Source of the DNA: Minisyncoccota bacterium | GTDB taxonomy: Bacteria; Patescibacteriota; Minisyncoccia; JAHIHE01; JAGLIN01 | DNA: 64,000 bases | Assembly (NCBI GenBank): GCA_041661265.1 | Contig: JBAZUT010000002.1 | Coordinates: 12,316 to 76,315 of the forward strand | Direction: 5' to 3' | Shown here: one piece after another, positions 41,789 to 62,701 of the stretch | Layout of the letters: every line of letters starts with the position of its first letter | How positions within the stretch are numbered: position 1 is the first letter of the stretch | Made by a program: the position numbers and the translations under genes | The notes under the pieces: model-generated | The model's input: only the letters and a program-made list of their open reading frames with translations | Database searches by the model: none | What the model was told of the DNA's origin: nothing

Positions 41789-41809
41789 GTATGGTATATA
41801 TTTTCCACA

Positions 41810-47272: not shown

Positions 47273-47436
47273 ATCTTCGCTTCCTCCTTTTTCTTTGTGA
47301 GCATGATCAATACATTGATTTCAAGGTGCTTTCCTTTGAAGTCCCTCTCTGCCGTGCTGTTTATCTTAAACAGTATGGCGGAAAGAGAGGCAATGCCGGC
47401 TGCATTATTTGCAGAACAAATTGCCTGATATGTAAT
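47273..47436 (-). promoter_or_regulatory. Conserved array leader (copy 5)
   Basis: Identical over its length to the leader at 42686..42845 except for the GGCAAT-hairpin loop. Confidence 0.55.
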
Positions 47437-48819
47437 TTACAGCACTCTTAGGAACCAGCCATTTTTTGATCCGTCATATACGGATTCTACGCGCCTGCCT
47501 TTCAGCTTTTCCCTTAATTCTCCTATTTTCTTTCCGGAAAAAGCGCTGACGCTCCATGTGAATAGCTCCGTCCATGGGACATGCACCCTGCTCTTCTTGT
47601 CCACCAATCCGGCCTCTTTGAACGGGTTGATATTCTTGACATCAAGATAAACCAAACCTTTTTTAGGATGATATTTCCAATGCAGCTGTTTAATATCTTC
47701 TGTCCAGATTATAATCTCCAGATCATCCAGAAATTTTCCAGCCTCTGTTCCTATCTGCATGTCGCGAGGCGCAATTCGTTTCAGATAGCATTTCTTCGAG
47801 CTTCCTGATCCGTTTGCACTATATCCATATTTTTTCGGCTCATATAGCTCTTCTCCGATCAGCTCTCCATATTTTTCCAGCGCTATCAATTGCCTGCCAT
47901 CACTGCCGACGTAATGAGCTATTCTGCATGCATTCGGTGCAATAACGATCAGATCGTCACCGTCCATTTCGATCTCACATCCCTCGCCAATAAGAAGATC
48001 TTCCAGCGATACTGCTTTTTTTTCTTCGACCTGTTTTTCGGTTACATCATTGGAATTGCCTGAATCTTTCTCGGCCTCGATTATCTTTGTCTCAATGTCC
48101 GGTTCAATTTTCCGCAAACGGATTTCATTTCCGCTTTCTCCGCTTATCTTATATCCATGCTGCATTAATGGATAGATGGCATATGTTTCATTGTCTGGTC
48201 TTGTAAATAAGATCTCATGCCCCGCATCTTTATACTGTCCGGACACTTTATTACCCACGGGTGGAACAACGATAACATCTGCCGCCCTTATATCCCGATG
48301 CGGATCTTCCTCTCCCGCTTTAACATTCGATAAAGTACAACCCTCTTGTAACAACAGGCATATAAGCCTTTCCGATTGTTCTTTGCCGGTTTCCTTAACA
48401 TTCAACGTCTCTGTGTCCTTCTTCTGTTCATCTTTGGTTTTGTTTTGACCGCCTTCTATTTGCCTGATCTCTGTCTCAACCATCTCAATACTTGGCATCG
48501 CTCCGCCTCTGGAAAGCATAATTTCGAGCACCGGCCAGAAGAACACTTTGATCGGCGGATATCCATCAAGCTTGATGCTCGGGTCGTTGTATTCCCAATT
48601 TCCGGTCATGGCATAATAGATAGCCTTTCCAAGTTCTCTCAGGCCTTCTTCCTCGCTTGATAGCGTTTCTCTTCCTTCAAGAGATATGCTTTCTGCCACG
48701 ATATCTTGGGGCAGGATCCTGTAATAGTTGCCTTCCTTGGCTCCTTTTTTGTACAGTTCAAGAAGCTCCCTCAGCGCTGCAAAATAACCCTTATCTGTCT
48801 TTTCATCGATCTTTATCAT
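47437..48819 (-). CDS. Paralog-array member 5 (460 aa), type-A N-domain, two tandem EGC middle modules, family C-terminal domain
   Basis: The middle module is duplicated (LLQEGCTLSNV... and LLIGEGCEIEMD...). The C-terminus reads ...GKKIGELREKLKGRRVESVYDGSKNGWFLRVL. Confidence 0.75.
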   Translation of the reverse strand: MIKIDEKTDKGYFAALRELLELYKKGAKEGNYYRILPQDIVAESISLEGRETLSSEEEGLRELGKAIYYAMTGNWEYNDPSIKLDGYPPIKVFFWPVLEIMLSRGGAMPSIEMVETEIRQIEGGQNKTKDEQKKDTETLNVKETGKEQSERLICLLLQEGCTLSNVKAGEEDPHRDIRAADVIVVPPVGNKVSGQYKDAGHEILFTRPDNETYAIYPLMQHGYKISGESGNEIRLRKIEPDIETKIIEAEKDSGNSNDVTEKQVEEKKAVSLEDLLIGEGCEIEMDGDDLIVIAPNACRIAHYVGSDGRQLIALEKYGELIGEELYEPKKYGYSANGSGSSKKCYLKRIAPRDMQIGTEAGKFLDDLEIIIWTEDIKQLHWKYHPKKGLVYLDVKNINPFKEAGLVDKKSRVHVPWTELFTWSVSAFSGKKIGELREKLKGRRVESVYDGSKNGWFLRVL

Positions 48820-48983
48820 ATCTTCACTTCCTCCTTTTTCTTTGTGAGCATGATCAATACATTGATTTCAAGGTGCTTTCCTTTGAAGCCCCTCTCTGCC
48901 ATGCTGTTTATCTTAAACAGTATGGCGGAAAGAGAGGCAATTCCGGCTATTGTCTTTCAATAAGCGGGATTGCCAAAATGTTT
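48820..48983 (-). promoter_or_regulatory. Conserved array leader (copy 4)
   Basis: Seen in the sequence. Confidence 0.55.
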
Positions 48984-49823
48984 TTATTCGCAAATCCTTA
49001 AATACCAGTTTTCCTCATTTTCATCATATACCGACACTATGCGCCTGCCATTCAATATTTTTTTCAAATCGTATATGTCACAGGATTTATCGGCGTTCGC
49101 CGGAAATGATATTTTTTCCGTCACATCGATAAACCCGCCATCCCTGAAAATATTCGCATCTCCTCTTGCATGCATGTCCACCAGACAACTTTTGACATCA
49201 TATGACCATTTCCAGTCAACTTCGTCCTTGAATCCTGTACGCTCTCGCATCCATGCAAAAACCTTGTCAAGAAATTCCCCGGCATCTCTTGTTTCTATAC
49301 TTGCATAGTGAAAGCACACAGGATATATCATCTTTCTGGCTTCCATCACCGTTTCTTCAAAAACACTTTCATCCAAACCGCCGAACATCAGGACAAGCTC
49401 TTTCAACAGCTGTTCTTTGTTCTTTTTTCCGCCTTCTGCCGTCTTTTCGCCCCTACCTTTTTTTTCCCCGGCCTCTTTTATTTTCTCTTCTATTCTGTCG
49501 ATGTCCGGAGCCTCTTGCCTGGACAGCATCATTTCCAGAACAGGCCACATCATCGAATCGATCTTGGGATATCCGTCGAGCTTGATGCTCCGGTCGTTGT
49601 CTTCGCAAATTCCGGTGACTGCGCGATAGGCGATCTTTCCCAATTCATGCAATCCGTCTTCAATGCTTGCTGCAGTTTGCCTGGATCCGGGATCGATCCT
49701 CTTCGCCACAAAATCTTCCGGTAAGAATTTATAATATTTCCCGTCTTTGGCTCCGTTTTTATACAACTCAAACAAATTCTTGAGCGATCTGAATATTTCA
49801 TCATCCGTCTTCTTTTCGGTCAT
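48984..49823 (-). CDS. Paralog-array member 4 (279 aa), divergent N-domain, family C-terminal domain. Translationally coupled to member 3 (18-bp gap, own RBS, no leader copy)
   Basis: MTEKKTDDEIFRSLKNLFELYKNG...SIKLDGYPKIDSMMWPVLEMMLS. The C-terminus reads ...GRRIVSVYDENEENWYLRICE. Confidence 0.7.
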   Translation of the reverse strand: MTEKKTDDEIFRSLKNLFELYKNGAKDGKYYKFLPEDFVAKRIDPGSRQTAASIEDGLHELGKIAYRAVTGICEDNDRSIKLDGYPKIDSMMWPVLEMMLSRQEAPDIDRIEEKIKEAGEKKGRGEKTAEGGKKNKEQLLKELVLMFGGLDESVFEETVMEARKMIYPVCFHYASIETRDAGEFLDKVFAWMRERTGFKDEVDWKWSYDVKSCLVDMHARGDANIFRDGGFIDVTEKISFPANADKSCDIYDLKKILNGRRIVSVYDENEENWYLRICE

Positions 49824-49841
49824 TATCCTGCCTCCTCAAAT

Positions 49842-50921
49842 TCATTCCTCGCATACTCGCAAATACCAATTGCCCCTTCTGTCCAGCACGGACAGAACTT
49901 TTTTTCCTTTCAGCTCCTCTTTTAACCCGTTCATACCATAGGCGAAGCCTTCTATCGAATAGTATGCCCTGCCTGTTACCGTCGTGATATTCTTGAATTC
50001 AACCGCTTCTTTTTCATCTATGAAACCGCCATTTTCGAATAATGCAACGCCTGCATGATCATTCGGTATCATTTTTATGAGATTCTTTTCTCTGTTGGAA
50101 GCCCATAATATCATGCCCGTCACATTATCAAATTTCAGTTCTCTCGCATATGCCTTCGCAAAATTTATCACTTCATCGATGAATTTTTCCGCATCTCTTT
50201 GGGCTGATCGGTCATGTCCGGCCTCAATCCTTCTCAGATGGACTTCGTTTCCGTGATATTTGTTTCTTATTTTGTAGCCGAATTCTTTTAACAGGTATTC
50301 ATAAAATATCCTATCCGGCCTTTCTATGCGGATCCTTACTCCATCATCTTTGCATAAAGCAAGTATTTTGCATCCTTCCGGCGCGATCACGATCAAGTCG
50401 CCCGCCTTGATGTCCTTGCTTGGATTCTTGCTTTCTTGCCTTAATGTCAGCACGGTACAGCCTATGTTGATCAATATACCCTTCAGGTCTTTTGTTTGCG
50501 CTATATTCGACCACTTTCCGGATATCTCAGCTTCGGATCCCCTTGCCCCCGTGTCAGCTTGAGCCGACCCGAATATTTCTTCGATCCTTCCGATGCTTGG
50601 CGCTTCTGCCTTTGAAAGCAGAACCTCAAGCGCGGGCCAAAAGAATATCTTGATAGGCGGATAGCCGTCTATCTTGATGCTTGGATCGTTGTGCTCCCAG
50701 GTACCGGTCGCATAAAAATAGATCGCTTTCCCAAGCTCTCTAAGCCCCTCTTCGGCGCTTGCTGCGGTTTTTCTGGATGCGAAAGAAATATTCTCTGCCA
50801 GAACATCATCCTGCAGAAATAAGTAATATCTTCCCTCCCCAGCTTCTCTCGCATACAGTTCAAAAAGTTTCTTGAACGATTTGAACAGTTCTTCGTCCGT
50901 TTTCTTTCCGATCTTCATCAT
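49842..50921 (-). CDS. Paralog-array member 3 (359 aa), divergent N-domain, EGC-type middle module, family C-terminal domain
   Basis: MMKIGKKTDEELFKSFKKLFELY...SIKIDGYPPIKIFFWPALEVLLS. The C-terminus reads ...GKKVLSVLDRRGNWYLRVCEE. Confidence 0.75.
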   Translation of the reverse strand: MMKIGKKTDEELFKSFKKLFELYAREAGEGRYYLFLQDDVLAENISFASRKTAASAEEGLRELGKAIYFYATGTWEHNDPSIKIDGYPPIKIFFWPALEVLLSKAEAPSIGRIEEIFGSAQADTGARGSEAEISGKWSNIAQTKDLKGILINIGCTVLTLRQESKNPSKDIKAGDLIVIAPEGCKILALCKDDGVRIRIERPDRIFYEYLLKEFGYKIRNKYHGNEVHLRRIEAGHDRSAQRDAEKFIDEVINFAKAYARELKFDNVTGMILWASNREKNLIKMIPNDHAGVALFENGGFIDEKEAVEFKNITTVTGRAYYSIEGFAYGMNGLKEELKGKKVLSVLDRRGNWYLRVCEE

Positions 50922-51081
50922 CTCTGTTTCCTCCTTCTTCTTCCATGAACAAAACTGATACTTTTGATTTCAAGGTGCTTTCCAAAAAGTCCCTCGCTGT
51001 CATGCTGTTTGGTTGAACAGTATGACGGAAAGAGAGGCAATACCGCTTGTTTTTTTCACAAAAGGGATTGCCGATATTTAT
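50922..51081 (-). promoter_or_regulatory. Conserved array leader (copy 3)
   Basis: Seen in the sequence. Confidence 0.55.
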
Positions 51082-52155
51082 TCAGCAAACTTTCAAAAAC
51101 CATCCATTATTCGATCCATCATATACAGATAATATGCGCTTGCCCCAAAGCTTTTCTTCCAATTCGCTGACGCTTTTTCCCGTATCTGAAAATAAGCCCC
51201 AGGAAACTATATTCAGCAAAGAAACTTTCACTCTTTCTTTTTTGTCAATGAATCCGGCTTCTGTCAGCCCCTTGGTGTCCTTAAACTCGATATATACCAA
51301 AGCTTTTTTGGCATTATATGTCCAATACAGGTCTCCTTTGAATCCCCGTTGCCCCCACAGAAATAATTCCAGATCATGCAGGAACTCTTTTGCGTCCCAA
51401 GTTTGAAGTTTGTGCAAACGGATCTCCTTTTCGTTGATCTCTTCTGATATTTCGTACTCGTCTCCTCCAACATAATATTCAACATTTGTCCCATTTGATC
51501 TAAAGATAATTATTCCAATCCCATGGATCGAAACCAATTTGAATATTTTTCCTCCGCTAGGAGCCAGCACGCTCAGGTCTTCCTCCGCATTGCTTCTTCT
51601 CGGATGATCTTTTCCTTTTATAGCATTTATCCGGCACCCTTCATTGGTCAAAAAATATGTCAAGGCATTATTCGGCACTTTTCTGGTTTTATTTTCAAGC
51701 ACCGGCTCGACTATTTTTTCCTCTTTGCCCGTTTCTCCGTCTATAACCTTCTCTGTTTCAACGGGAGCTATTTCGTCTTCTTTTGCGCCCTTTTCAATTT
51801 CTTTTATCTTTGCCTCGATATCATCAACGCCCTGTATTTTTGTTTTCGAAAAAATGATCTCCAGAACAGGCCACATCATCGAATCGATCTTGGGATATCC
51901 GTCGAGCTTGATGCTCCGGTCGTTGTATTCCCAGATGCCGGTTGCGGCATAATAGATCACTCTTGCGAGTTCTCTCAGGCCTTCTTCCTCGCTTGATAGC
52001 GTTTCTCTTCCTTCAAGAGATATGCCTTCCGCCACGATATCTTGGGGCAGGATCTTGTAATAGTTGCCTGCCTTGGCTCCTTTTTTGTACAGTTCAAGAA
52101 GCTCCCTCAGCGCTGCAAAATAACCCTTATCTGTCTTTTCTTCGATCTTTATCAT
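51082..52155 (-). CDS. Paralog-array member 2 (357 aa), type-A N-domain, EGC middle module, family C-terminal domain
   Basis: N-domain nearly identical to member 9. The C-terminus reads ...GKRILSVYDGSNNGWFLKVC. Confidence 0.75.
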   Translation of the reverse strand: MIKIEEKTDKGYFAALRELLELYKKGAKAGNYYKILPQDIVAEGISLEGRETLSSEEEGLRELARVIYYAATGIWEYNDRSIKLDGYPKIDSMMWPVLEIIFSKTKIQGVDDIEAKIKEIEKGAKEDEIAPVETEKVIDGETGKEEKIVEPVLENKTRKVPNNALTYFLTNEGCRINAIKGKDHPRRSNAEEDLSVLAPSGGKIFKLVSIHGIGIIIFRSNGTNVEYYVGGDEYEISEEINEKEIRLHKLQTWDAKEFLHDLELFLWGQRGFKGDLYWTYNAKKALVYIEFKDTKGLTEAGFIDKKERVKVSLLNIVSWGLFSDTGKSVSELEEKLWGKRILSVYDGSNNGWFLKVC

Positions 52156-52323
52156 ATCTTCGCTTCCTCCTTTTTCCTTGTAAGCATGATCAATACATTG
52201 ATTTCAAGGTGCTTTCCTTTGAAGTCCCTCTCTGCCATGCTGTTTATCTTAAACAGTATGGCGGAAAGAGAGGCAATCGGTCATCGTTTTTTTTCGATGG
52301 AATAATTGCCATTACATTGTTAT
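52156..52323 (-). promoter_or_regulatory. Conserved array leader (copy 2)
   Basis: Identical to 43836..44003. Confidence 0.55.
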
Positions 52324-53181
52324 TCACACCACTTTCAAATACCAGTTACCTTTTTTGTCCAATATGGACATGATCTTCTTTCCACTCAATTCGGTCTTCA
52401 GCTTTTCAAGCCCGTATATAAAGCTTTTTTTATCCGAATAAATGATGATCCTATCCCATTTTTCAATGATCTCCGGAATCTGGCTTTTCTCGATCAAGAA
52501 GCCTGTCTTTTCAAGCATCTCGATCAATCTGGCATTATCCGGGATCATTTTATAAAGAGTCCGGTCTTTCTGTGCCGATACCCATACCCACTTATAGATC
52601 CCGATTCCCAATGCTTCCTCGTGGGCATTTGCGTTTTTTATAACCAAGCCGAGTATCGCTCCGGAATCCATAACGGTGCAGCCCTGTACGAGCGACCGGT
52701 CGAATGAAATATCCGATCGGATGTCATTTATTTTTATTACGGGTATGCTTTCGACTTTCTTCTTGTCTTCTTCGATCTCGTTGATCTTCCTGTTGATCTC
52801 CTTGATCTTCCTGCCGATCTTTTCAATTTCAACTTTTTTGTCCTTCGAAAGCATCATCTCCAGAACCGGCCAGGTCATTGATTCGATCGGCGGATAGCCG
52901 TCGATCTTGATGCTCGGGTCGTTATATTCCCAAAACCCGGTAGCCGCGAAATAAACGGCTTTTCCCAATTGACTCAGTCCATCTTCAAGGCTCATCGCAG
53001 TTTCTCTGGATCCGGCATCAACCTTTTCCGCCAAAATATCATTTGGTAAAAAGATGTAATATTTCCCATTCTTGGCTCCTTTAACATATTTCTCAAAGAG
53101 ATTGCTCAGTCCCTTAAACAGATTGGCATCTTTTTTCTTTTCGATCTTCAACATCGCATATTCCTCCTCTGTCTTTTCCAA
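52324..53181 (-). CDS. Paralog-array member 1 (285 aa), divergent N-domain, body related to member 7, family C-terminal tail
   Basis: ...SIKIDGYPPIESMTWPVLEMMLS. The C-terminus reads ...GKKIMSILDKKGNWYLKVV. Confidence 0.75.
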   Translation of the reverse strand: MEKTEEEYAMLKIEKKKDANLFKGLSNLFEKYVKGAKNGKYYIFLPNDILAEKVDAGSRETAMSLEDGLSQLGKAVYFAATGFWEYNDPSIKIDGYPPIESMTWPVLEMMLSKDKKVEIEKIGRKIKEINRKINEIEEDKKKVESIPVIKINDIRSDISFDRSLVQGCTVMDSGAILGLVIKNANAHEEALGIGIYKWVWVSAQKDRTLYKMIPDNARLIEMLEKTGFLIEKSQIPEIIEKWDRIIIYSDKKSFIYGLEKLKTELSGKKIMSILDKKGNWYLKVV

Positions 53182-53354
53182 TAGTCTGAACTAGTATCTT
53201 CATTTCAAGGTGCTTTCCAAAAGTCCCTCGCTGTCATACTGTTCGCTCTGAACGGTCTGACGGAAAGAGAGGCAATGCCGGACGCCGCTTTCATGGCTGA
53301 CCGGAATTGCCGAAATGTTCTATATATTTTCTTTTTAAGCTCAGAATGAGCATT
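53182..53354 (-). promoter_or_regulatory. Conserved array leader (copy 1), between the AAA+ ATPase gene and the first array gene
   Basis: Contains the ggcaatgccggacgccgctttcatggctgaccggaattgcc hairpin variant. Confidence 0.55.
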
Positions 53355-55172
53355 TTATGTTTTCACTCCCGAGCCTGCACCATTCAACTCGGCTTCTGCA
53401 TCATTCAATATCTTCTCCCAATTCTCCGGCCGAAGATGCTTTGAGCTTCCTCTGATCGCAAGCACGATCTGCTTGTTTATTTCCTGCGGATCAAGGCTTC
53501 TTTCCCATTCCTCAATGGCCTGGTAAAGATTCGCTTCTCTTACGGAAGCGCCTCCTTCTCTGGCGGATATCCTATCCGCTTCAAGGACCATCCATTCCAC
53601 ATCCGCTCCGGTAACATATTTCTTTTCCACCAGCAGACGGGCAAATTTCGAAAAGTCCCTGATCTCGGTCGGGATCCCGTATCGTGCGAACATCACGCTG
53701 AATATGTTCGGATATTCGTTCTCGATCGGCAAACCGAACGGAATTATTTCATCGGATCTGCCTTTTCTCTTATAGGCCGGATCGACAAGATCGGGCCGGT
53801 TGGTGATCCTCACCCAGATAACCTTTCCTCTTATGTCAGGCCTGGAACAGAATTCGAATTTCTTCTGCCTCAGGCGGTTGGAAACTCCGGAATCGCCGTT
53901 ATAAGCGTCGCGGCCTCCTTCCGACTGGTCGGCTTCGTCCTCGACGACGATCACCGGCGCAAGGTCTTCCAGGCAGGCAAGTATCATCTGCATATACCTT
54001 TCGGACTCTCCGACATACATATTGCGTGGATTTTGTATCTCAACGAAATTGAATCCGCATTCAAATGCCCAGCACTCGAATAGGAAGGTCTTTCCGGTTC
54101 CCGGAGGACCCGCCGCAAGTATGCCCATCGGAACACGCCTCATCATCCCTGCCAGAATATTGTCATTCACTTCGCGAAGATACCTCTTGACGTTTTCTTT
54201 TCCGCCGAAATAATTGAATCCCCACTTGGGAATCTTAATTTTTACGCGGTCACCGAATTCTTTTTCAAGGATCGTCTTTTTTTCCTCCTTTATCAGGTCC
54301 AGGCTCAAAGGGACCTTGCTGTAGGAAGCTTGCTCATAAATGCCTTTGATCTGTTTTACGGACAAGCCCGACGTGCAGATGCCCAGCATTTGCGCGTTTA
54401 CATTGCTTTCCACATTTATCCTTTTTTGCCCGATAAGTTCCTGCCAAAGCTTGACTCTTTCCTCCATATTGGGTTTTGGGATCCGAATGGCGGGGATATC
54501 TGTCTGAGTGGACCTCAATGGTTCGGCCAGATCACCTATATTCGGCGTGATCAATATCATAGTGTTCCCTGTCGCGCCAACATCCCTGTCCTGAGCCAAT
54601 CGCTCCAAAGTTTCCACGACCAGACGGTCCTGAATGCTCTGATGAGCCGATGCGGCCGGAACCAGGTTGTGGGCGAAAGATATTATCACGACTTTTTTCA
54701 GGATATTTCCTGAAATATCAAGTTTTTCCGCCGTCTTCTTTTCGATCCTTGAAACCAGAAGATTGTCCCTCATGATCCTGGCAAGCAGCGGCAAAACGAT
54801 CTCCGGCGTCTTTCCTCCGATCAATTCGTCGATGGAAAGCTCATTCGCGGATCTTTGCTGCACTCCGATCGCCTTATTTTGCGCTGCGGTTGTCCGGGGC
54901 GCCATGCTTTGATCTTCGAGCAGATATTGCTGCCTGAATATTTTCTCCATATCTTCATTGGGAAATCGTATCCCTGTCGAAATGGAATAGAGAATAACCA
55001 TCCTCTGCCTGAAATATTCCTCTGCAAGCTCCTGATCCAGGGTGACATAGTCGCCCTTCATGTTCTTCTGAAAATCTCCTGTATTCCCCCATATAACAAG
55101 AAGGTTTGTTCCGAGAGCTAAATTTCTCATCAGCTCATCTTGCCACACCATAACATCATCTCCTTTTTGCAT
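53355..55172 (-). CDS. Classical-clade AAA+ ATPase (605 aa) with ~330-aa N-terminal domain of unknown function
   Basis: Walker A GPPGTGKT, Walker B VIVVEDEADQ, and a second region of homology ITNRPDLVDPAYKRKGRSD carrying Arg fingers. Confidence 0.85.
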   Translation of the reverse strand: MQKGDDVMVWQDELMRNLALGTNLLVIWGNTGDFQKNMKGDYVTLDQELAEEYFRQRMVILYSISTGIRFPNEDMEKIFRQQYLLEDQSMAPRTTAAQNKAIGVQQRSANELSIDELIGGKTPEIVLPLLARIMRDNLLVSRIEKKTAEKLDISGNILKKVVIISFAHNLVPAASAHQSIQDRLVVETLERLAQDRDVGATGNTMILITPNIGDLAEPLRSTQTDIPAIRIPKPNMEERVKLWQELIGQKRINVESNVNAQMLGICTSGLSVKQIKGIYEQASYSKVPLSLDLIKEEKKTILEKEFGDRVKIKIPKWGFNYFGGKENVKRYLREVNDNILAGMMRRVPMGILAAGPPGTGKTFLFECWAFECGFNFVEIQNPRNMYVGESERYMQMILACLEDLAPVIVVEDEADQSEGGRDAYNGDSGVSNRLRQKKFEFCSRPDIRGKVIWVRITNRPDLVDPAYKRKGRSDEIIPFGLPIENEYPNIFSVMFARYGIPTEIRDFSKFARLLVEKKYVTGADVEWMVLEADRISAREGGASVREANLYQAIEEWERSLDPQEINKQIVLAIRGSSKHLRPENWEKILNDAEAELNGAGSGVKT

Positions 55173-55190
55173 TTTTTTTCTTTCCTTCCA

Positions 55191-55322
55191 TTATCCGCAC
55201 ATCCCTTCATAGTTCACCTTCACTTCTATCCCGACTGCCTGCAAGATATCCCGCAGAAAATGAGAATCGTCATGAGAGCTGGCATTGATCTCTACGCGTC
55301 CTTCAAAAACACTGACGCTCAT
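55191..55322 (-). CDS. Tiny protein (43 aa), FEG...LQAVGIEV motif, paralog of the adjacent 69-aa gene (DUF2997-like?)
   Basis: The internal ATG at 55322 lies right after the stop of the upstream 69-aa gene. The ORF-track 85-aa version overlaps that gene in another frame, so its N-terminus is rejected. Confidence 0.35.
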   Translation of the reverse strand: MSVSVFEGRVEINASSHDDSHFLRDILQAVGIEVKVNYEGMCG

Positions 55323-55326
55323 AAAT

Positions 55327-55536
55327 TCACGCGCGGATCTTTTCTTTTCCGACGACAGGTTCTTTTTCTTTTTCTTTTCTTCTTCCGTTCTGGACATCTG
55401 TTTCAACTCCCATTTTTTCAAGCAATGACCTGATTTTAAGCTCTTCATAGTCGCACGTTTTGTTCGGAAATCCTTCGAAATCCATCTCGATCTTCCCGTC
55501 TTTTAGCCTGATAGCAACCTTTCTCATTTCATTCAC
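55327..55536 (-). CDS. Small protein (69 aa), DUF2997-like pattern (IRLKDGKIEMDFEGFPNKTCDYEELKIRSLLEKMGV)
   Basis: Overlaps the upstream 170-aa gene by 8 nt, suggesting translational coupling. The assignment to DUF2997 is from memory of that family's consensus. Confidence 0.45.
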   Translation of the reverse strand: MNEMRKVAIRLKDGKIEMDFEGFPNKTCDYEELKIRSLLEKMGVETDVQNGRRKEKEKEPVVGKEKIRA

Positions 55537-56041
55537 CAGCTTTCATCCCGACGACATTGAAGCTTTGTCTGCCGTCGCCTATCGAATATTTCTCAGTCGG
55601 TTCGATCCTGTATCCGAGAATTTCAAGAGCGGCTTTCGCGGCTTCGAGAAGATATGCATCCGTGAACATCTTCTTGAGGCGCATTATCTCTTCTTTCCAT
55701 TCGCTCCTGTATTCGTCAGCAGCGAACCGGACCACTCCGTTCTTCATTGTTATTCCCAAACCATTTGGAAGCTTTGAAGTTTTCAGCGCGCCGATGATCT
55801 TCTGACCGCCAAAGGACTTGGTTTCATTGCGGCCAAAGTCGCAAATATGGTCCGTGATCTCGACTCCCTGGCTTTCCAAGGTTTTGAAAGCGCCCTGTAT
55901 GCATTCCTCGATGACATCATCAAGCTCCAGATCTTCTATGATCTTTGCGAATTTGGGGTCTTTCAGCCGAAGCTCGTTCAGCATTTCATTCATGTTCTCC
56001 GTTGCGCTCAATTGAGCGTTCATCCATACGATCTTACTCAT
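55529..56041 (-). CDS. Hypothetical protein (170 aa) coupled to the DUF2997-like gene (possibly DUF1257-like partner)
   Basis: Intact ORF. Its C-terminal AAKAALEILGYRIEP weakly resembles DUF1257/Ycf35. Weak inference. Confidence 0.45.
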   Translation of the reverse strand: MSKIVWMNAQLSATENMNEMLNELRLKDPKFAKIIEDLELDDVIEECIQGAFKTLESQGVEITDHICDFGRNETKSFGGQKIIGALKTSKLPNGLGITMKNGVVRFAADEYRSEWKEEIMRLKKMFTDAYLLEAAKAALEILGYRIEPTEKYSIGDGRQSFNVVGMKAGE

Positions 56042-56361
56042 AAATCCTTCCTCCTGTAAACGTTCCTTGTTTGCCGGTTTTTAAAGTGCAATTTCGATTG
56101 CGCGATGTTTTGAATATCGCCTGATATGCCAATGGTGCTTGGCATGCGAAAAATTCCAGACTAAACCGGCTGTTTTTCGCTTTGTTAAAGTTAAACTTTA
56201 ACTAAACAAACTAGCATTATTTGAATAAATTGTCAATAATCGGCAGGACTGGCAATAAATGCTCGCCTTTTTTAAAATATCACAAGGCGATATCAGGGAA
56301 AACGAAAGATCGATAATGCCTGAAAACCGCTATTTTAATAAAAAAATCCCCTATTTCAGTT

Positions 56362-57729
56362 TTACTGCAATAGGGGCCTAAGTTCAACCTTATCTTCGGC
56401 TTTTTCGCCATAAGATGCGATCGCTATTTTAATCTTTAATTCACTTTCTAGAAAGTGTATATATTCAGCTTTTTTCACCGTTTGGTAGATCGGTCTGCAT
56501 AACTTGAGAAGTTCTGCGAGTTTGCCTTGGTGTTCGGAAGAGGTCTTTGCGGGAAAATTAATATTTTTTATCATTATTTTTCCACTTGTTTCTTCGAACT
56601 CGAAGTATTCCTGCAGCGATGCATCTTTTTTTCCGCAGTATTCATAGGCCTCGCACACCCTGATCTTTTCAAAATCAAGACGGTCAAGGTTTGTAAGTGC
56701 GACACAATTAATTTTTCCTGCTACCCTCAGAGCATACCTTGACGCCACCAGATCAAACCATCCGATGCGAAATTCACCCTGCCATTCATTTGTGATGTTA
56801 TGCGTGTCCGGTATCTTTCCGGTCAGCCATTTATTGTATGTTACAAACGGACCTGCGCCATGCCGGGTGCTATACGCCCGGATAACTCCGATCTTGACGA
56901 CCTTCCCTTGAAGTCCCATGGACCCGATCAGCTCTTCTGCATTGGCGAAAGTAGTGCACGAATGCGTTATGTGAGGATAGAATCCCCTTTTTTCATCAAG
57001 GAGAACTCCCTGCGCCCCTTCGAAGACGACACTTCCGGAAATTTCAGCTCCTTTTTTCTTGCCGATTTTCAGCGCTTTAGAAAAACTGGAGTAATACGAG
57101 GCTAGTCTTCCGACGTATTTTTCATCTTTCAGATTCCCCAGAAGCTCCTGCAGTTTTGAATTTTCCGGCTGCTCGGAAGCAATTTGCTCCGCAATATCTG
57201 TCTTCATGCGCCATAGAAAATCCAGCTTTGTCTGAAGTGTTTCCGGATCCGAAAGGTCCTTCGCCCGAAGAGCCATTTCTCCATAATTTCTTCCGTCCTT
57301 CACCGCCTCGCCGACTCCGAATCCGCAGCTTCCGTGTTTCTTATTGCCTCTTGAAATTTCCAGCATCTGATTGATAATGCCGTGAAATGGTGTCACTATG
57401 AGACAATCGGGATCGATCGAAACTAGCCACAAAGGACGTTTTACGCCTTTTTTCGCAAGTGAATTGGCTTCGTGTCCGAGCCGTACCGGATCAACCATCA
57501 CTTTATCGAAGAGATATGTACTTGCTCCTGAAAAAGTTCCTGATCCGTACTGCGCGAAACAATGAAGATATCCGTCGGAATTCACCACGTAATGCGCCGC
57601 TTGCGGCCCGCCATTATAACGGACAATTGATTTTATGTCATATCGTCTCGCAAGATAATCCACAATAGAACCCTTTCCTTCATCGCCGAAGCCCAAGCCC
57701 GCTACAATGAAGATCCTTTCTTCTTTCAT
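56362..57729 (-). CDS. Adenylosuccinate synthetase (PurA)-family enzyme, divergent
   Basis: GDEGKGS P-loop, GGPQAAH in place of GGHNAGH, and FEGAQG are present. Several other conserved PurA segments are strongly diverged. Confidence 0.7.
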   Translation of the reverse strand: MKEERIFIVAGLGFGDEGKGSIVDYLARRYDIKSIVRYNGGPQAAHYVVNSDGYLHCFAQYGSGTFSGASTYLFDKVMVDPVRLGHEANSLAKKGVKRPLWLVSIDPDCLIVTPFHGIINQMLEISRGNKKHGSCGFGVGEAVKDGRNYGEMALRAKDLSDPETLQTKLDFLWRMKTDIAEQIASEQPENSKLQELLGNLKDEKYVGRLASYYSSFSKALKIGKKKGAEISGSVVFEGAQGVLLDEKRGFYPHITHSCTTFANAEELIGSMGLQGKVVKIGVIRAYSTRHGAGPFVTYNKWLTGKIPDTHNITNEWQGEFRIGWFDLVASRYALRVAGKINCVALTNLDRLDFEKIRVCEAYEYCGKKDASLQEYFEFEETSGKIMIKNINFPAKTSSEHQGKLAELLKLCRPIYQTVKKAEYIHFLESELKIKIAIASYGEKAEDKVELRPLLQ

Positions 57730-57853
57730 ATCGCACCTCCGATTCGATCCGATATTCGATATATATTTTGTTCCTTATTCCATTCATCATTCCATAAAAA
57801 GTTATGCGGGGTTAAGCGCGAGCTCAACCCCGGCATGTTCTCATTTCAGTTCT

Positions 57854-59413
57854 TTATTGCAGTTTTGATGATTTGCTCTTTCTCTTTGTTCCTCCTCCGG
57901 GAACCAGCCGGTTTGAATCTATTTTCACAAGCTCCATACCCGTGCTCACCACGCCGGCAAGAGCCTTCCGGGTCTGGCTTCGTCTCAACTCTGTCTGGCC
58001 TCGTCCTTCCATATCCACGAGATACCCCTCGAGATCGACGTTTCCTTCCGCGATCGCAAGCGCACCCAGCATGACATCGACGATCCCTTTTGGATCTTCG
58101 CACATAAGGATGTTTTCCGCAGAGATCACATCGGCCCATTGAGCTTTTATAAGCTCATCGTTATAGCCCGCATACTTATCGGCGTCATTCTTCCTTTCTC
58201 TGGCCTTGCTCGGGTCAAAGTCGAATTCATGGACCTGGACATTGCTTGAAGAACCACTAAGCCCATCCGGAGTTCTTCCTTCAAAGTGCATGATGTCGTC
58301 GCCGACCTGCACCTCTACGCGAAATTCCGTTCCTTCAAGGCTCCGCTCATGAAAGGCGTAATTCTGGACATATATCTTATAATGTCCTTTCGGCGCCTTT
58401 CCCCTTGGCCATCTTACGTTTTCAACCGGCTTATCCGTATTGAAAGCGTCATTCTTATAGCCCTGAACGTTCATGTCCACATCAAGGAATCCTCCGCAAG
58501 GAGCCGGAGAATGGTTGTTCCGTTTGCAGTGCGAGCCATAAAAGATATGATGTCCGCATGGATCTATGATATGGATATCGAGGTCATTTCTCTTATTCCA
58601 GAGAAGTGATGCGCGTATATCCACATCGGCTGCATCATACATTCCGCCCGCTTCCTTGACCCGCTTTTCCATTTCCGCATCAATATCGGCCCTCCTCTCA
58701 TTCCACTTTTTCTGCGGGAATATGAGGAAAACATGATATTTTTGCTGCAGTTCCGCAAAGATCTGCTTCGAGTCGATATCCTCAGGCAGGTCATCTCCGA
58801 TCCATTTCTTCACCTGTTCCCTGGAAACTTTCGGATAGAATCCTTCGTCTCCCAGGAAGAACAGATAACCTTTCTTGCCTCGCTTGTTGGCATCCAGGAT
58901 CGTGTGTCGTGCGGCAAAATATGCCATTAGTTCATATGATTCCTGTCCTGTTCCGCCTCCGCCTTCTTCAAGCCATATCTTCGCCAGATTCTGATCAAGC
59001 CTGTTATCAGACTCAAACTGTCCGACCTGGATCGGCGCTTTATCGCAAGGGATCCCATTGGCCACGCTCGCATCGCCTACCGCTCCAAAACAGATCGTAG
59101 GATGAGAAACATAGTTCCTCATTATGGCCTGTCCGATGAACATCGGCAATTTTGCATATATGACCTTTGTGTCATCTCCTCGTGAACGCGTCACGTCAAA
59201 CGCCACGAATATCCCTGTAGTTTCGGGATGCTCGGGGCTGTCCCGGCATTCCCTGTTTTTCTTCTTTATATTCAGATCCTTATGGCATTCCCTTTTTGCA
59301 GGGTTCCGGGCAGCTTCGGAATCTCCGCCTTCATAACCCTCATAGGTGAACACCCTTCTTTCCGTAGATCTGGCTCTTTCGCCTACATCTCCGTTATAAT
59401 CTCCGCCTCCCAT
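57854..59413 (-). CDS. vWA (MIDAS: DVTRS ... T ... LGDEG) domain protein with C-terminal Cys/His-containing domain (519 aa)
   Basis: MIDAS-like pattern FVAFDVTRSRGDD...GGGGTGQESYELM...YLFFLGDEG. The C-terminal half is uncharacterised (DPCGHHIFYGSHC). The start overlaps the upstream kinase-like gene with a 4-bp gap. Confidence 0.55.
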   Translation of the reverse strand: MGGGDYNGDVGERARSTERRVFTYEGYEGGDSEAARNPAKRECHKDLNIKKKNRECRDSPEHPETTGIFVAFDVTRSRGDDTKVIYAKLPMFIGQAIMRNYVSHPTICFGAVGDASVANGIPCDKAPIQVGQFESDNRLDQNLAKIWLEEGGGGTGQESYELMAYFAARHTILDANKRGKKGYLFFLGDEGFYPKVSREQVKKWIGDDLPEDIDSKQIFAELQQKYHVFLIFPQKKWNERRADIDAEMEKRVKEAGGMYDAADVDIRASLLWNKRNDLDIHIIDPCGHHIFYGSHCKRNNHSPAPCGGFLDVDMNVQGYKNDAFNTDKPVENVRWPRGKAPKGHYKIYVQNYAFHERSLEGTEFRVEVQVGDDIMHFEGRTPDGLSGSSSNVQVHEFDFDPSKARERKNDADKYAGYNDELIKAQWADVISAENILMCEDPKGIVDVMLGALAIAEGNVDLEGYLVDMEGRGQTELRRSQTRKALAGVVSTGMELVKIDSNRLVPGGGTKRKSKSSKLQ

Positions 59414-59417
59414 ATTC

Positions 59418-60557
59418 TTACCTCCATTGTATTATTTTTTTCTTCATTTTCAATTCCTCAAATCTTTCCGATCCCCAGATCTTTTTCCGAAGATCTCTCA
59501 ATTGCGCATGCATTTCCCAGGCATCATTGGCCCTCTGAATGGGGCTTTCCATTACAAAGAACCTGATGAACCTCTGGAATCTCTCATCCACCGAGCCGGG
59601 CATGGTATTCGTCCTGATGTCTCCACCAAGCGCATATATCATGCATTTTCCGATGGAATAAAGATCAGATGACGGGGTAGGACGCTTTCCCTGTTTCACT
59701 TCCGGAGCGCTATAGTCTTCATCATAATATTTGAAGCTTTCTCCGGTATGGAAAGGATCTCGTGTCGCATAACTCCAGTCAACGATCATTACATTATCGT
59801 CTCGAGGACGCGACATTATGTGTGAAGGATTGATCTTGTTGTGAGTCCAATCCGTACTATGTGAATATCCGATAGCGCTTAGGGTCCTATCAAATATCCA
59901 CGCCACATGCCTCTGATGTATTCCGTTCTTATATTCCTCACGCATTGAGTAAAGATCGTATCCGTCGAAACTCTCCAGAATAAGGCCAGGTTTGTGATCA
60001 GTTGTTCTGAATTGGTCGATCAAAACCGGAAAATGCTTGCTTTGCTTGCTTCGTTGCGAATTAAGGAACTTTAATATCCTTACTTCGTTTTGCATCAAAA
60101 CATCATCGGCCGGATCTATGACCACCTTAAACTTGACGGGTATCGAAGCATTCTCACCTTTCACACAGATTCCTGAATAGATCAGCGAAATATCTCCTTC
60201 CGCCTCTTTCGGCAACTTCATATGATATTCACGATTCTGCCTCTTAAAGACAATTACTTCTTCTTCCGATGAGTCCTGTTCTGACGAACCGCCGTTTGCT
60301 TCCCGCTCGATCATTAGATCGGCTTCTTTCCGGAAAACGTTCAGCATCTTGAATGCTTCTTCTGCCATCTTGAAAACATTGTCGTTATATCTGAAATGGT
60401 CAGGAAAGACGAACTTCGTCTTTTCTACATAGATTTCCCTGACTTTTTTCAGACGGACGGCGACATCTTCGCCTGACAAATTTCCGAAAATATCTTCCGG
60501 AGACTTTGCACGTTGAAGTTCCGCATGTATAGCCTTCAATTCTTCCTCTTTGTTCAT
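59418..60557 (-). CDS. Eukaryotic-type Ser/Thr protein-kinase-fold protein with degenerate catalytic loop (predicted pseudokinase or atypical kinase)
   Basis: - Gly-rich-loop-like IYSGICVKG.
- Beta3 lysine VKFKV.
- APE motif (YSAPEV).
- Subdomain IX DLYSIGKCMIYALGG.
- HRDLKPxN is replaced by HNKINPSH and DFG by DWS. Confidence 0.6.
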   Translation of the reverse strand: MNKEEELKAIHAELQRAKSPEDIFGNLSGEDVAVRLKKVREIYVEKTKFVFPDHFRYNDNVFKMAEEAFKMLNVFRKEADLMIEREANGGSSEQDSSEEEVIVFKRQNREYHMKLPKEAEGDISLIYSGICVKGENASIPVKFKVVIDPADDVLMQNEVRILKFLNSQRSKQSKHFPVLIDQFRTTDHKPGLILESFDGYDLYSMREEYKNGIHQRHVAWIFDRTLSAIGYSHSTDWTHNKINPSHIMSRPRDDNVMIVDWSYATRDPFHTGESFKYYDEDYSAPEVKQGKRPTPSSDLYSIGKCMIYALGGDIRTNTMPGSVDERFQRFIRFFVMESPIQRANDAWEMHAQLRDLRKKIWGSERFEELKMKKKIIQWR

Positions 60558-60796
60558 TTTTTCACCTCTTCAACATTATTCATTTCTCTGATCCTTACAG
60601 AGCATATCTTTCTTTCTGTCACATCATTCTATACACCTCGAGTTGTTAAAGTACGTTCCTCAGGATAACATTGATCTTCGCTATCCTGCTGAAAGGCAAT
60701 CACGTTTACATTGATTATCTTTCAGCAATCAACGAGATCATAGATTGAAAAATATTTGGCGGAACAGTTCGTTCTGCTCCGCCGCCTGTTTGTTTC

Positions 60797-61453
60797 CTAA
60801 GCTTTTTTTCTTCTGTATAATTTATGTTCTTTTATATATTCGATCACTCTCGGATCAACCAGCCCGTCAATCGGCCTATCTTCCGAAACGAGCCGCCGTA
60901 TCAGAGTCCCCGAACCGACAAGACCCTCGATCTCGATCACCTCGGAATGCGGAGGCAAGTCGTCCGGCTTCGCTTCATATCCCGGTCTCATAATGATCAA
61001 AAAATTCAGATTGTTCCATATTTCCGGCCCCTTGTTCCAAGCGGCCTGAATTTCGGAATTATTCCTGCATCCTCCGGCTATCAGATCCTCGCCGATGAGA
61101 TGCCAGATCTCGGCATTGGGATGAAGTTCCTGATATTTTTCCTGAACAAGATATGTCGGCGTAAATATATTATTTTCCAGATCATCGAGATCAAGCCTGA
61201 CCCTGGGAATATTCTCAAACGCTATCTTCGCCATTTCCATCCTGTCATGGATCGAGGTCTCATTCGTTGTCGATTTGTCCTCGCGGAAACCGCATGGGAT
61301 CACATAGACAAAATCAAATAATTTTGTAAGTTCCATCGCGATTATCTGGTGCGGTATATGCGGAGGATTCATGCTTCCTCCGACGATCACCACCCTTTCT
61401 TTTCCTTTGCGTCTATACAATTCATTCACCTCTTTAATACACGATAAAATCAC
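60797..61453 (-). CDS. Nicotinate/nicotinamide mononucleotide adenylyltransferase (NadD/NMNAT)-family nucleotidyltransferase
   Basis: GGSMNPPHIPH matches the (H/T)xGH cytidylyltransferase-fold motif GGSFNPxHxxH. Length 218 aa. Confidence 0.7.
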   Translation of the reverse strand: MILSCIKEVNELYRRKGKERVVIVGGSMNPPHIPHQIIAMELTKLFDFVYVIPCGFREDKSTTNETSIHDRMEMAKIAFENIPRVRLDLDDLENNIFTPTYLVQEKYQELHPNAEIWHLIGEDLIAGGCRNNSEIQAAWNKGPEIWNNLNFLIIMRPGYEAKPDDLPPHSEVIEIEGLVGSGTLIRRLVSEDRPIDGLVDPRVIEYIKEHKLYRRKKA

Positions 61454-61647
61454 CTTTTAAAAGAACTTTTTTCTTCATTGCGCTTCCGACAATATCCGTT
61501 TAATGAATATTGACCTTCAAATATAGGACTTCTATCCTATATTGTCAAGCTCAAAAACGTCATCAGACACCCCTATTCCAAACCCCTGAAATAATGTGCT
61601 TTCATGGCTGATCCGGCCAATGAACATTTAAAAAAATCCGCTTGTTT

Positions 61648-62568
61648 TTAAGCAGGATTATTGTTTGTTCTGTTTTGATATTGTCTCATCACTGAAATAG
61701 CTCTTTCGAATATTGCCATCCTCGAGCTCAGACCGTCGCTCAGCATGAACGATCTGAAACCGATCGATTCAAGATAGCGAAGGCTCAAAAGGTCTTGCAT
61801 GGAAACTGTTTCGCTTCTTTCCAAAGAGGTCAGAATGCGGGACGCGGCTATCGCATCGGGATCGCTTTTGATGACAAGATCAAGTGCATCGAAAATTTCG
61901 GTCTTATCATCCCCGATGTTTATATATCCGTCATCAGACGCAAAGATCAATCTGACATTCCGCTTCAGTGCGGGATATTCCCTCCTGACGAATTCCAGGC
62001 CCTTCTGGGATTCTATTTTCAGATAGATCTCGGCCTTCGGATCGAGAGCCAGGACATCCGAAATATCGGACATCTCTTCGACAAAAGAAAGCATGTATTT
62101 ATGCACTCCAAGCTCCGCTGCCGCATTGATATATTCAACATCTTCCGGCGTCAGATATTCGAATATCTTCAGATTATTGCCATGTATGTTCACGGCCTGC
62201 CCTTCCCCAAGAGCTTCTCTCGGGTCCGGATCCACATAGATCACTTTTCCGGAGATGATCCTTATTTCCGACTCGTCGCCTCCCCGGAATATGATCTTTG
62301 CGGGAAGGTCCACACTGAACTCATGATTTAGTTCGATGTTCCCGAATGGAGGAATGGTCCACTTGGCAACGCGCAGCTGCCGTCCTTTCACATCGATAAA
62401 CAATGTCCTGTCGCCGATGATCGACAACACGGCCTCGATCGCTTCCTTTGCGCTTTTATATTGATTCTTTGCTCCGATATTCAACCTGACCCCATCCACA
62501 AGATCATCGCTCAAAACTCTTTCAACGAGATCCTCTTTATAGAGAGCCGGTAACGTTACTATTAGCAT
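61648..62568 (-). CDS. Pyruvate-kinase-like TIM-barrel (A-domain only, 306 aa)
   Basis: Aligns by eye to PK (MLIVTLP~KIVCTIGP, RLNIGAK~RLNFSHG, FIDVKG~LLDTKG, KIESQKGLE~KIENEEGV, ASDDGYINIGDD~AADGLMVARGDLG). It lacks the PK B-domain and C-terminal domain. Confidence 0.55.
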   Translation of the reverse strand: MLIVTLPALYKEDLVERVLSDDLVDGVRLNIGAKNQYKSAKEAIEAVLSIIGDRTLFIDVKGRQLRVAKWTIPPFGNIELNHEFSVDLPAKIIFRGGDESEIRIISGKVIYVDPDPREALGEGQAVNIHGNNLKIFEYLTPEDVEYINAAAELGVHKYMLSFVEEMSDISDVLALDPKAEIYLKIESQKGLEFVRREYPALKRNVRLIFASDDGYINIGDDKTEIFDALDLVIKSDPDAIAASRILTSLERSETVSMQDLLSLRYLESIGFRSFMLSDGLSSRMAIFERAISVMRQYQNRTNNNPA

Positions 62569-62701
62569 ATCATCACCTCACAAAATTTTTCAATGTTCAC
62601 TTTCAAAGCTGATTCCCGCTTTGACAGATAATAATATATAAGTTCAATGCGGATGTCAAATATGCCGAGCCCGGACTTCCATTGACAGATATGCAAAAAG
62701 T

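Follow-up and report, generated by a model that had tools for sequence, protein, structure and literature searches.

A vWA/PurA-like Gene Cassette of Bacteria and Large Phages and Its Probable Independence from an Adjacent AAA+ Island in a Candidatus Paceibacterota Genome

Introduction

Why should a small bacterial genome carry, side by side and on one strand, three atypical nucleotide-handling enzymes, a kinase-fold protein, a von Willebrand factor A (vWA) protein, several tiny proteins and an AAA+ ATPase followed by an array of paralogs? The question is raised by a 64,000-nucleotide stretch of DNA (the window) from a metagenome-assembled genome (MAG) assigned to "Candidatus Paceibacterota", a member of the candidate phyla radiation (CPR). 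A preliminary description of positions 55,191–62,568 offered two answers: the genes might be ordinary salvage and central-metabolism genes, or they might be the signal-generating or sensing module of a nucleotide-centred conflict system whose output is the ATPase and the array. We consider a different answer probable, namely that two modules independent of each other meet here, a conserved, horizontally spread accessory nucleotide/NAD cassette (module A) and an indel island (module B).

Results

Two Separable Modules Meet in the Window

Every predicted gene between ∼41.8 and 62.6 kb lies on the minus strand, in the transcription order pyruvate kinase (PK)-like, NadD-like, kinase-fold, vWA, PurA-like (here PurA-X), p170, two tiny open reading frames (ORFs), AAA+ and ten paralogs. 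The flagged ORFs are real; independent gene callers found the same proteins in the same order on two metagenome contigs (L001 and L002). Module A spans positions 56,362–62,568 and contains the PK-like, NadD-like, kinase-fold, vWA and PurA-X genes. Module B, which is separate from the cassette, consists of p170 and the two tiny proteins (55,191–56,041) with the AAA+ gene and the array, down to ∼41.8 kb.

We surveyed 80 GTDB species-representative loci carrying a relative of the vWA protein and 37 IMG/VR loci with the vWA domain. Among the 80 bacterial loci, the kinase was found in 66 (directly upstream of vWA in 64), PurA-X within 10 kb in 57, a PK-like gene adjoining the vWA/PurA-like genes in 26 and a NadD-like gene in 20. 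All five genes were present at 16 loci and an AAA+ gene at 2; the ATPase was missing from the other 78 and from all 37 viral loci.

The closest relative of the window, L093 (vWA proteins 85% identical), has the same cassette and the same flanking genes and lacks a 15.4-kb segment, window 40,938–56,337. By blastn, L093 7989–13074 corresponds to window 61404–56338 and L093 13682–15259 to window 40937–39366, with ∼600 bp between PurA-X and an L27 gene in L093. As both flanks match in order between L093 and the window, the segment is an indel, either an insertion in the window or a deletion in L093. The only flanking direct repeat was a 13-nt match (E 0.009), which is not convincing. Conversely, L090, L096 and L098 carry the AAA module, in the order p165-p67-(p58), and no cassette gene; L098 ends at p58. 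Gene order is thus not conserved with the array in these relatives, and the idea of a sensor or signal module serving the ATPase and array is left mostly unsupported. The adjacency of modules A and B is probably a local insertion, with no conserved functional coupling.

Module A Recurs across Bacterial Phyla and in Large Phages

Module A recurs across at least nine bacterial phyla, and a scan with two patterns, which gives a lower bound, detected a vWA relative in at least 129 GTDB species genomes. The order in a Parcubacteria locus (L010) is exactly that of the window. The kinase-vWA-PurA-like order is kept in Planctomycetota, CPR and other genomes and in mycobacteriophage Colt, in which gp251 is a Ser/Thr kinase, gp252 the vWA homologue and gp253 a "PurA-like adenylosuccinate synthetase". 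Among GenBank phages searched by tblastn, ∼200 cluster C mycobacteriophages and some Vibrio phages encode the N-terminal vWA domain. Many of the 493 phage tblastn matches (Ackermannviridae, Bacillus, Caulobacter and others) were rejected as cassette members because they cover the YfaP-like sandwich only. In IMG/VR, PurA-X lies directly downstream of vWA in 36 of the 37 loci, many of them on contigs of 100–437 kb.

For the full-length vWA protein, clustering at 90% leaves at least 1758 relatives, and at least 911 representative clusters reach E ≤ 1e-30. Identities across phyla are about 45–65%, and those between CPR, Planctomycetota, Spirochaetota, Acidobacteriota and others are above 50%. Besides full-length homologues, the 150 best representative clusters include a shorter form (∼320 aa) and unrelated proteins sharing the YfaP domain; none of the 150 is a Rosetta-stone fusion with the kinase or PurA. 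The upstream genes are thus a conserved functional unit tied to nucleotide metabolism and phages, and the doubt of the preliminary description that they are ordinary genes stands. A kinase-vWA-PurA-like unit is not described in the literature that we searched. Neither PurA nor adenylosuccinate is mentioned by Iyer et al. in 2022 or 2021 (PMC9503650, PMC7824862), the latter of which mentions vWA-kinase pairs. Related concepts are already known, namely PurZ, vWA-kinase pairs, the NAD reconstitution pathways (NARPs) and systems centred on ADP-ribosylglycohydrolase (ARG).

Other arrangements were seen in Myxococcota. In many of these genomes (L043–L050, L066, L073–L075, L079, L081 and L088) PurA-X is on the opposite strand, ∼4 kb upstream of kinase-vWA. 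At 10 loci a protein of ∼850 aa with a double zinc ribbon and an SPFH/Band7 domain is encoded nearby on the opposite strand. Six Nannocystis genomes (L055–L057, L061, L062 and L065) have the vWA gene, with kinase and PurA-X not detectable within 10 kb. For high-GC Myxococcota loci the longest-ORF caller gave spurious antisense ORFs, and those neighbour clusters were used only if confirmed by Pfam.

When neighbouring ORFs were clustered and representatives scanned, the recurrent neighbours of the cassette proved to be a PRK/uridine-kinase-family protein, a PncA-type isochorismatase, NrtR, nicotinate phosphoribosyltransferase (NAPRTase, PncB) and Nudix proteins. ARG and Nudix genes lie within the cassette in L019 and L095, and a LOG/SLOG gene within that of L011. 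L095, a 224-kb metagenome contig with the short-vWA version of the cassette and an ARG gene, also encodes a ThiF-type E1 protein and a faintly ThiS/ubiquitin-like one (2100–3754) directly upstream of its NadE-NadD fusion.

These neighbours recall two known groups of systems. NARP1–3 are defined by Adps with Namat, NadV with NMNAT, or PnuC with NadR, and restoration of NAD by phages is established (PMC13464706). ARG/NrtR/vWA systems, and ARG-centred anti-ADP-ribosylation more generally, have been predicted (Iyer et al. 2022, PMC9503650 section 3.8). The cassette resembles both in associating an NMNAT-type transferase, NrtR, ARG and Nudix proteins with a vWA "chaperone" across phages and bacteria. 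It differs in that the defining enzymes (Adps/Namat, NadV, PnuC/NadR and ARG) are not in the window, ARG being found in some relatives only, and in its PurA-like, PK-like and pseudokinase components, which are foreign to NARP and ARG systems. Of the NARP1, NARP2 and NARP3 enzyme sets, only the NMNAT/NadD-type transferase was found in the window.

Module A might be a conflict system in its own right. In phages it would act as a counter-defence that restores adenine-nucleotide or NAD pools drained by host NADase or deaminase defences, and in bacteria as a mirror-image protective or immune module comparable to NARP and ARG systems. Large viral contigs and the cluster C mycobacteriophages commonly carry the core pair, the distribution across phyla is patchy, the NrtR, ARG and Nudix neighbours and the precedent of phage NAD restoration fit such a role, and an SLFN/AlbA_2 ATPase gene lies near a Uabimicrobium-like locus. 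However, PADLOC gave no system-level match for the window genes, only generic kinase (MkoA, PD-T4-6) and AAA (IetA) matches; the core has no effector or toxin domain; the cassette is syntenic, and hence vertically inherited, in the Paceibacterota relative L093 rather than sitting in a variable island; and NAD genes are missing from the viral loci. We regard this explanation as possible, and as clearly less probable than a more general accessory role in nucleotide or NAD metabolism.

A vWA Protein with a Conserved N Terminus

The vWA gene (57,854–59,413, minus strand; NCBI locus WC788_01835) begins 4 nt past the stop codon of the kinase gene, in agreement with the tight coupling noted earlier. 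Its 519-aa product matches no Pfam family above threshold, including VWA; YfaP/DUF2135 (PF09906) scores 13.6 bits, below the gathering cut-off (GA) of 22, and one homologue is called a "YfaP family protein" by NCBI. An AlphaFold2 model built with 32 homologues (pLDDT 79, termini disordered) contains a vWA fold at residues ∼60–235, a β-sandwich at 264–400 that may be YfaP/DUF2135-like, and a helical domain. Foldseek matched the model to the vWA domains of integrin β-I, SpaC, Sec24 and Ku80 with a probability of ∼1.0. The metal ion-dependent adhesion site (MIDAS) motif DVTRS is conserved, with S77 invariant and D73 and T75 present in at least 90% of sequences; the protein is thus a vWA (MIDAS) protein, as had been proposed.

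The N terminus is conserved as well. Its consensus is MGGGxY, with M1, G2 and Y6 invariant in 32 bacterial sequences, and 35 of the 37 viral ORFs follow the pattern MG[GSTYN][GS]x[WYF]. At the other end (window 57,854–57,900), the protein and its homologues have a conserved basic tail ending in K/R-x-(R/K)-L in bacteria and in RL, RF or IL in phages, which is reminiscent of a docking tag. In a Patescibacteria locus (L060, 16429–18720), the first pair is followed, ∼5 kb farther downstream, by a second and divergent vWA-like/PurA-like pair, which shows that the two genes can be duplicated together.

The Kinase-fold Protein Is a J-domain Pseudokinase

The kinase-fold gene (59,418–60,557, minus strand) encodes 379 aa, with a degenerate J domain followed by a kinase fold (Pfam Pkinase, 44.7 bits). 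When the protein was aligned to eukaryotic-type kinases of the PDB, the β3 Lys, αC Glu, DFG Asp and APE motif were in place and HRD was replaced by HNK, which upholds the earlier view of a kinase fold lacking the catalytic Asp. Among 69 relatives, the loop reads HGN[IV][ED]P[AS]H in 65, so that the catalytic Asp is missing, the loop Lys is replaced by Glu or Asp and the Asn by His. K144 is present in all 69, E158 in 68 and the DFG Asp D260 in 66, and APE is kept. Compared with Hanks-type Ser/Thr kinases, the pseudokinase thus has the β3 Lys, αC Glu and DFG Asp and lacks the HRD Asp and the loop Lys and Asn. The N-terminal J domain, to which Pfam DnaJ gives weak matches among the relatives, has a true HPD tripeptide in at least 25 of the 69, including the phage Colt homologue; the tripeptide is FPD in the window, L093 and L010.

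Anantharaman, Iyer and Aravind have reportedly described the TerY-P triad and other regulatory pairs of vWA proteins and Ser/Thr kinases tied to the synthesis of nucleoside-like metabolites. The triad combines a vWA protein, an active Ser/Thr kinase and a PP2C phosphatase. The cassette is similar in that vWA and kinase-fold proteins are encoded side by side near nucleotide-handling enzymes. It differs from TerY-P in its kinase-fold protein, which has a J domain and no catalytic Asp, in the YfaP-like sandwich of its vWA protein, and in its enzymes, which are PurA-like, PK-like and NadD-like, whereas those of TerY-P-type systems are phosphoribosyltransferase, ATP-grasp and HAD proteins. We found no PP2C phosphatase, either in the window region or among the genes that recur near the cassette.

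PurA-X Retains the GTP Site and Has Lost the Aspartate Loop

PurA-X (455 aa; 56,362–57,729, minus strand) is a member of the adenylosuccinate synthetase superfamily. It matches Pfam Adenylsucc_synt (PF00709) with 236 bits and falls below every NCBIfam PurA equivalog cut-off (207.3 versus 402 bits for NF002223; 172 versus 395 bits for TIGR00184). This confirms the diverged segments that had been noted in it, which include the residues for the IMP phosphate and the aspartate loop. Aligned with Escherichia coli PurA (1ade), the window protein retains D13, K16, H41, Q224, T239 and D333 and shows the changes N38Q, T129C, R143E, V273H, T300W, T301Q, R305F and K331N together with a deletion of R303.

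We compiled residue statistics for 61 homologues encoded beside a vWA gene (bacteria and two phages) and for 35 IMG/VR homologues. Of the 61, 59 have Q38, 60 have H273, 51 have W300 and 53 have Q301; all of them lack R303, and 60 carry F, M, L or V at position 305. All 35 viral proteins have H273, Q301 and the R303 deletion, and 33 have an aromatic residue at position 300. The GTP/phosphotransfer site (P-loop GDEGKG, Asp13, His41 and Gln224) is present in the window protein, in at least 60 of the 61 and in 35 of 35 viral proteins, with Gln224 replaced by His in 6. Family-wide, and in 96 of 96 homologues, the L-aspartate loop T300-T301-G-R303-R304-R305 has been replaced; it has lost one residue and become [WFY]-Q-G-x-[FLM]-R. 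Of the ligands of the IMP 5'-phosphate, T239 is the sole one kept; position 38 is changed as above, T129 is C or V and position 143 is variable, and K331 has become N, C or H. Because they are shared by the 61 and the 35 homologues, these changes are properties of the family and not drift in the window.

Relative to PurA (EC 6.3.4.4), PurA-X therefore has the same P-loop, Asp13, His41, Gln224, Thr239 and guanine-specifying Asp333, and it differs in the aspartate loop, in N38, T129, V273 and K331 and in being paired with a vWA protein. PurZ/PurZ0, of the 2-aminoadenine pathway of Z-genome phages, is like PurA-X a phage-borne, neofunctionalised PurA homologue and is a precedent for a change of substrate in the PurA fold. 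In PurZ, aspartate is still the substrate, and E. coli Asp13 is replaced by a Ser that accommodates the 2-amino group (bioRxiv 10.1101/2025.10.22.683976, preprint), whereas PurA-X retains Asp13 and lacks the aspartate loop, so that the earlier analogy with PurZ does not hold. Identity with PurZ was also rejected by score (40 bits versus a cut-off of 300 for NCBIfam NF038379), and no DatZ- or MazZ-like family was matched among the window proteins scanned with Pfam. With the phosphotransfer residues kept and the aspartate loop replaced, PurA-X is neither a housekeeping PurA nor a PurZ. Judged by its residues, it would define a third, widespread class of PF00709 in which the GTP activation chemistry is kept and the aspartate site discarded.

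One specific function can be imagined for such an enzyme, although we think it quite unlikely. PurA-X might be a protein-directed purine-nucleotide ligase that, like PurA, activates a 6-oxopurine nucleotide with GTP, and in which the free α-amine of the invariant N-terminal Gly of the vWA protein takes the place of L-aspartate, giving a covalent adduct of the N6-(protein)-adenylate type. This would fit the vWA N terminus, which is conserved as MG[GS]Gx[WYF] and predicted to be disordered, and the replacement of the arginines that bind the aspartate carboxylate by aromatic or hydrophobic residues. It would also fit the placing of the two genes, which adjoin directly at 36 of the 37 viral loci and lie within 10 kb of each other at 57 of 80 bacterial loci, and the fact that the triad has no other enzyme, since its kinase lacks the catalytic base. 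If true, the product would be a previously unknown post-translational modification common to bacteria and jumbo phages.

PK-like and NadD-like Proteins Are Probably Not Housekeeping Copies

The PK-like phosphotransferase (306 aa; 61,648–62,568, minus strand) scores 19.5 bits with Pfam PK (GA 30) and 30 bits with TIGR01064 (cut-off 306). The profile of its family (A2, 23 sequences) matches only pyruvate kinases in the PDB (E 5.6e-12). It had been described as a PK A domain lacking the B and C domains; the A barrel and the missing C domain are confirmed, and a shortened B-domain remnant aligning with PykF residues 132–168 is present. The invariant residues R28, N30, D59, K184, E186 and D213 correspond to PykF R32, N34, D66, K220, E222 and D246, and PykF T278 is replaced by an invariant Ser (S243). 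Compared with pyruvate kinase (∼470 aa), the shorter protein thus shares the A-domain barrel and the ligands of K+, Mg2+ and phosphoenolpyruvate (PEP). In most loci its gene is placed directly upstream of the PurA-X gene.

The NadD-like nucleotidyltransferase (60,797–61,453, minus strand; a 218-aa ORF, for which gene callers place the start at 207 aa) is an NadD/NMNAT-type adenylyltransferase, as had been recognised. It matches CTP_transf_like with 36.7 bits and stays below the NadD models (NF000840, 90.3 versus 150 bits; TIGR00482, 88.9 versus 112.45 bits). At the motifs (H/T)xGH and ISSTxxR it reads GGSMNPPHIPH and GSGTLIRR. The family motifs are GGSFNPP[CG]xHH (variant HIGH) and GSGTxIR, with the final His and Arg186 invariant. 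At 13 of the 20 loci that have it, including those of Clostridia, Acidobacteria and Gammaproteobacteria MAGs, the domain forms the C terminus of a fusion of ∼820 aa with glutamine-dependent NadE (CN_hydrolase and NAD_synthase). L093 has a 630-aa NadE with the same two domains (5785–7989) between its PK-like and NadD-like genes, where the window has only ∼200 nt (61,454–61,647), and NadE has therefore been lost from the cassette in the window lineage. A Moraniibacteriota locus contains a second, more distant NadD-like gene beside NAPRTase, which makes the cassette NadD-like copy a paralogue.

The spacers hold several regulatory candidates, all from a consensus scan only: terminator-like hairpins 3' of the vWA gene (57,807–57,832, minus strand) and 3' of the NadD-like gene (60,758–60,783), and promoter-like sites at 62,631–62,659 and 61,520–61,548. 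They suggest that in this genome PK-like, NadD-like, kinase with vWA, and PurA-X may each be transcribed separately.

These findings make it very improbable that a small CPR genome here has its housekeeping purA, nadD and pyk genes, clustered by chance with a kinase and a vWA gene and serving normal AMP, NAD and ATP supply. The host is a CPR bacterium with reduced metabolism, CPR cassettes sit amid genuine genes of NAD salvage (NrtR, PncA, NAPRTase, NAD kinase and NadE), and neither PurA-X nor the PK-like protein has lost its residues for phosphotransfer or catalysis, respectively. Nevertheless, all three enzymes miss their equivalog cut-offs widely, and the aspartate loop of PurA-X is lost throughout its family. 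The cassette also occurs in genomes of 9–13 Mb (Uabimicrobium and Nannocystis-type Myxococcota), in Acidobacteria, Clostridia and phages; vWA relatives are spread over the many species genomes counted above; and the Moraniibacteriota locus has its second NadD-like gene.

The Island Resembles Modules Linked to Diversity-generating Retroelements

Module B starts 320 nt from PurA-X with p170 (55,529–56,041, minus strand), an α+β protein of 170 aa with only three homologues among 5.8 billion proteins. There is an 8-nt overlap between the p170 stop and the p69 gene (55,327–55,536, minus strand; NCBI WC788_01820, 66 aa). The p69 product has 26 relatives, none with a Pfam domain, and is 41–43% identical to L090 p67 and L092 p68. 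The second tiny ORF (55,191–55,448, minus strand) overlaps p69 in another frame; it is 85 aa long and probably encodes 68 aa, as called on L001 and L002. Its C-terminal 45 aa are 46% identical to L090 p58, and a 58-aa homologue is called in L090 and L098. The overlap of the two tiny ORFs, ∼70–120 nt in different frames, lies in a purine-rich stretch encoding Lys and Glu, and L090 p67 and p58 overlap too; the ORFs may represent two proteins or one frameshifted product. The three small ORFs are syntenic in L090, L092, L096 and L098 and are thus real and conserved. The labels DUF1257-like and DUF2997-like once given to them found no support in Pfam, as p170, p69, p68 and six homologues gave no Pfam match to PF06868 or PF11211 at E ≤ 10.

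The AAA+ ATPase (605 aa; 53,355–55,172, minus strand; Pfam AAA, 77.5 bits) belongs to the classical AAA clade and is 49% identical to the AAA proteins of L090 and L096, which lie in the same five-gene module. There, p165-p67-(p58) is followed by the AAA+ gene, a gene for a protein of 374–376 aa (L090 p376, L096 p374), bAvd and a reverse transcriptase. Over its final 119 nt, the 374–376-aa gene pairs with a template repeat; of the mismatches between the two, 13 of 15 and 15 of 16 are at adenines of the template. This adenine bias between variable and template repeats identifies bona fide diversity-generating retroelements (DGRs) in L090 and L096.

The ten paralogous genes of the window array (41,810–53,181, minus strand; all-vs-all blastp) have no Pfam matches. 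By blastp, their N termini are homologous to the N-terminal domain of the DGR target (L090 p376 and L096 p374). Neither a reverse transcriptase nor Avd was found in the window by tblastn. The array (with the ATPase, window 41,810–55,172) stands where the relatives have the DGR (L090 10001–15980; L096 9507–15483), as if it substituted for DGR diversification.

It is very improbable that the AAA+ protein and the array are the output of a nucleotide signal made or sensed by the five upstream genes, for although the genes are adjacent and co-directional, AAA-module relatives occur in defence-island-like contexts, and a related AAA+ gene with its partner between NadD and kinase in L039 and L068 indicates that such an association has arisen at least twice, each module occurs without the other (the cassette in L093, the AAA module in L090, L096 and L098), the ATPase is missing from nearly all cassette loci, and the 320-nt gap and the hairpin 3' of the vWA gene separate the two.

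Other Features of the Window

Between 41,000 and 64,000 the window has more than 22 kb with all predicted genes on one strand. The GC and AT skews there are strongly negative (GC skew ∼−0.14 to −0.26 from 42 kb on), and the intergenic spacers are long (120–320 nt). No RNA family was found by Rfam in the 40–64-kb region. Farther away, the window encodes an IS200-like Y1 transposase (6302–7237) and a 2453-aa RHS/Tc-toxin-like protein (7940–15,301) with SpvB, TcdB_toxin_midN, FG-GAP, RHS repeat and Laminin_G_3 matches; a polymorphic toxin of that size is notable for a small-genome CPR (Paceibacterota) organism.

Discussion

Taken together, we favour the reading of the locus as two independent modules, and we propose the following role for module A. 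The vWA protein and PurA-X would be its obligate core; the J-domain pseudokinase usually precedes them, and about a third of bacterial loci add the PK-like and NadD-like proteins, the latter often fused to NadE. PurA-X would phosphorylate the 6-oxo group of a purine nucleotide with GTP, because it keeps the P-loop, Asp13 as base, His41 as acid, Gln224 and the Asp333 that specifies guanine. The displacing amine would probably not be aspartate, nor the product adenylosuccinate, because the L-aspartate loop is replaced family-wide and a new invariant His273 has appeared. The PK-like enzyme, with its catalytic set kept, may regenerate NTP from PEP. The NadD-like (or NadE-fused) protein and the PncA, PncB, NrtR, Nudix and ARG neighbours may tie the cassette to the NAD/ADP-ribose pool. 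The pseudokinase, predicted to bind nucleotide and to recruit Hsp70 through its J domain, would form with the vWA protein a regulatory or substrate partner of PurA-X. The cassette would thereby serve as an accessory means of remodelling or restoring nucleotide or NAD pools in bacteria and large phages, rather than housekeeping purine synthesis.

Several points weigh against this proposal. NAD genes accompany the cassette in only about a quarter of bacterial loci and in none of the sampled viral loci, and the association could partly reflect the operon neighbourhoods of small CPR genomes. The substrate, nucleophile and product suggested for PurA-X are read from residue conservation only. The copy in the window may be partly degenerate; it is without NadE, its J-domain tripeptide is FPD, and its kinase loop is HNK and not HGN. 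Moreover, L039 and L068, both from CPR bacteria, have an AAA+ protein 31–34% identical to that of the window with a 234–236-aa partner, placed divergently between NadD and kinase, and some functional link between modules A and B is still conceivable.

On the proposed reading, the AAA+ gene and the paralog array are to be read as a separate island akin to DGR-linked modules. PF00709 proteins of phages and CPR bacteria are now read either as PurA, in auxiliary purine synthesis, or as PurZ, in Z-genome synthesis. If our proposal is correct, metabolic reconstructions of CPR bacteria and jumbo phages would be partly wrong in their calls of "adenylosuccinate synthase" and "pyruvate kinase". There may then be a new nucleotide product or protein modification at the interface of NAD and purine metabolism, an arena of many phage-host conflicts, and cluster C mycobacteriophages (gp251–253 of Colt/Bxz1-like phages) would offer a tractable genetic system.

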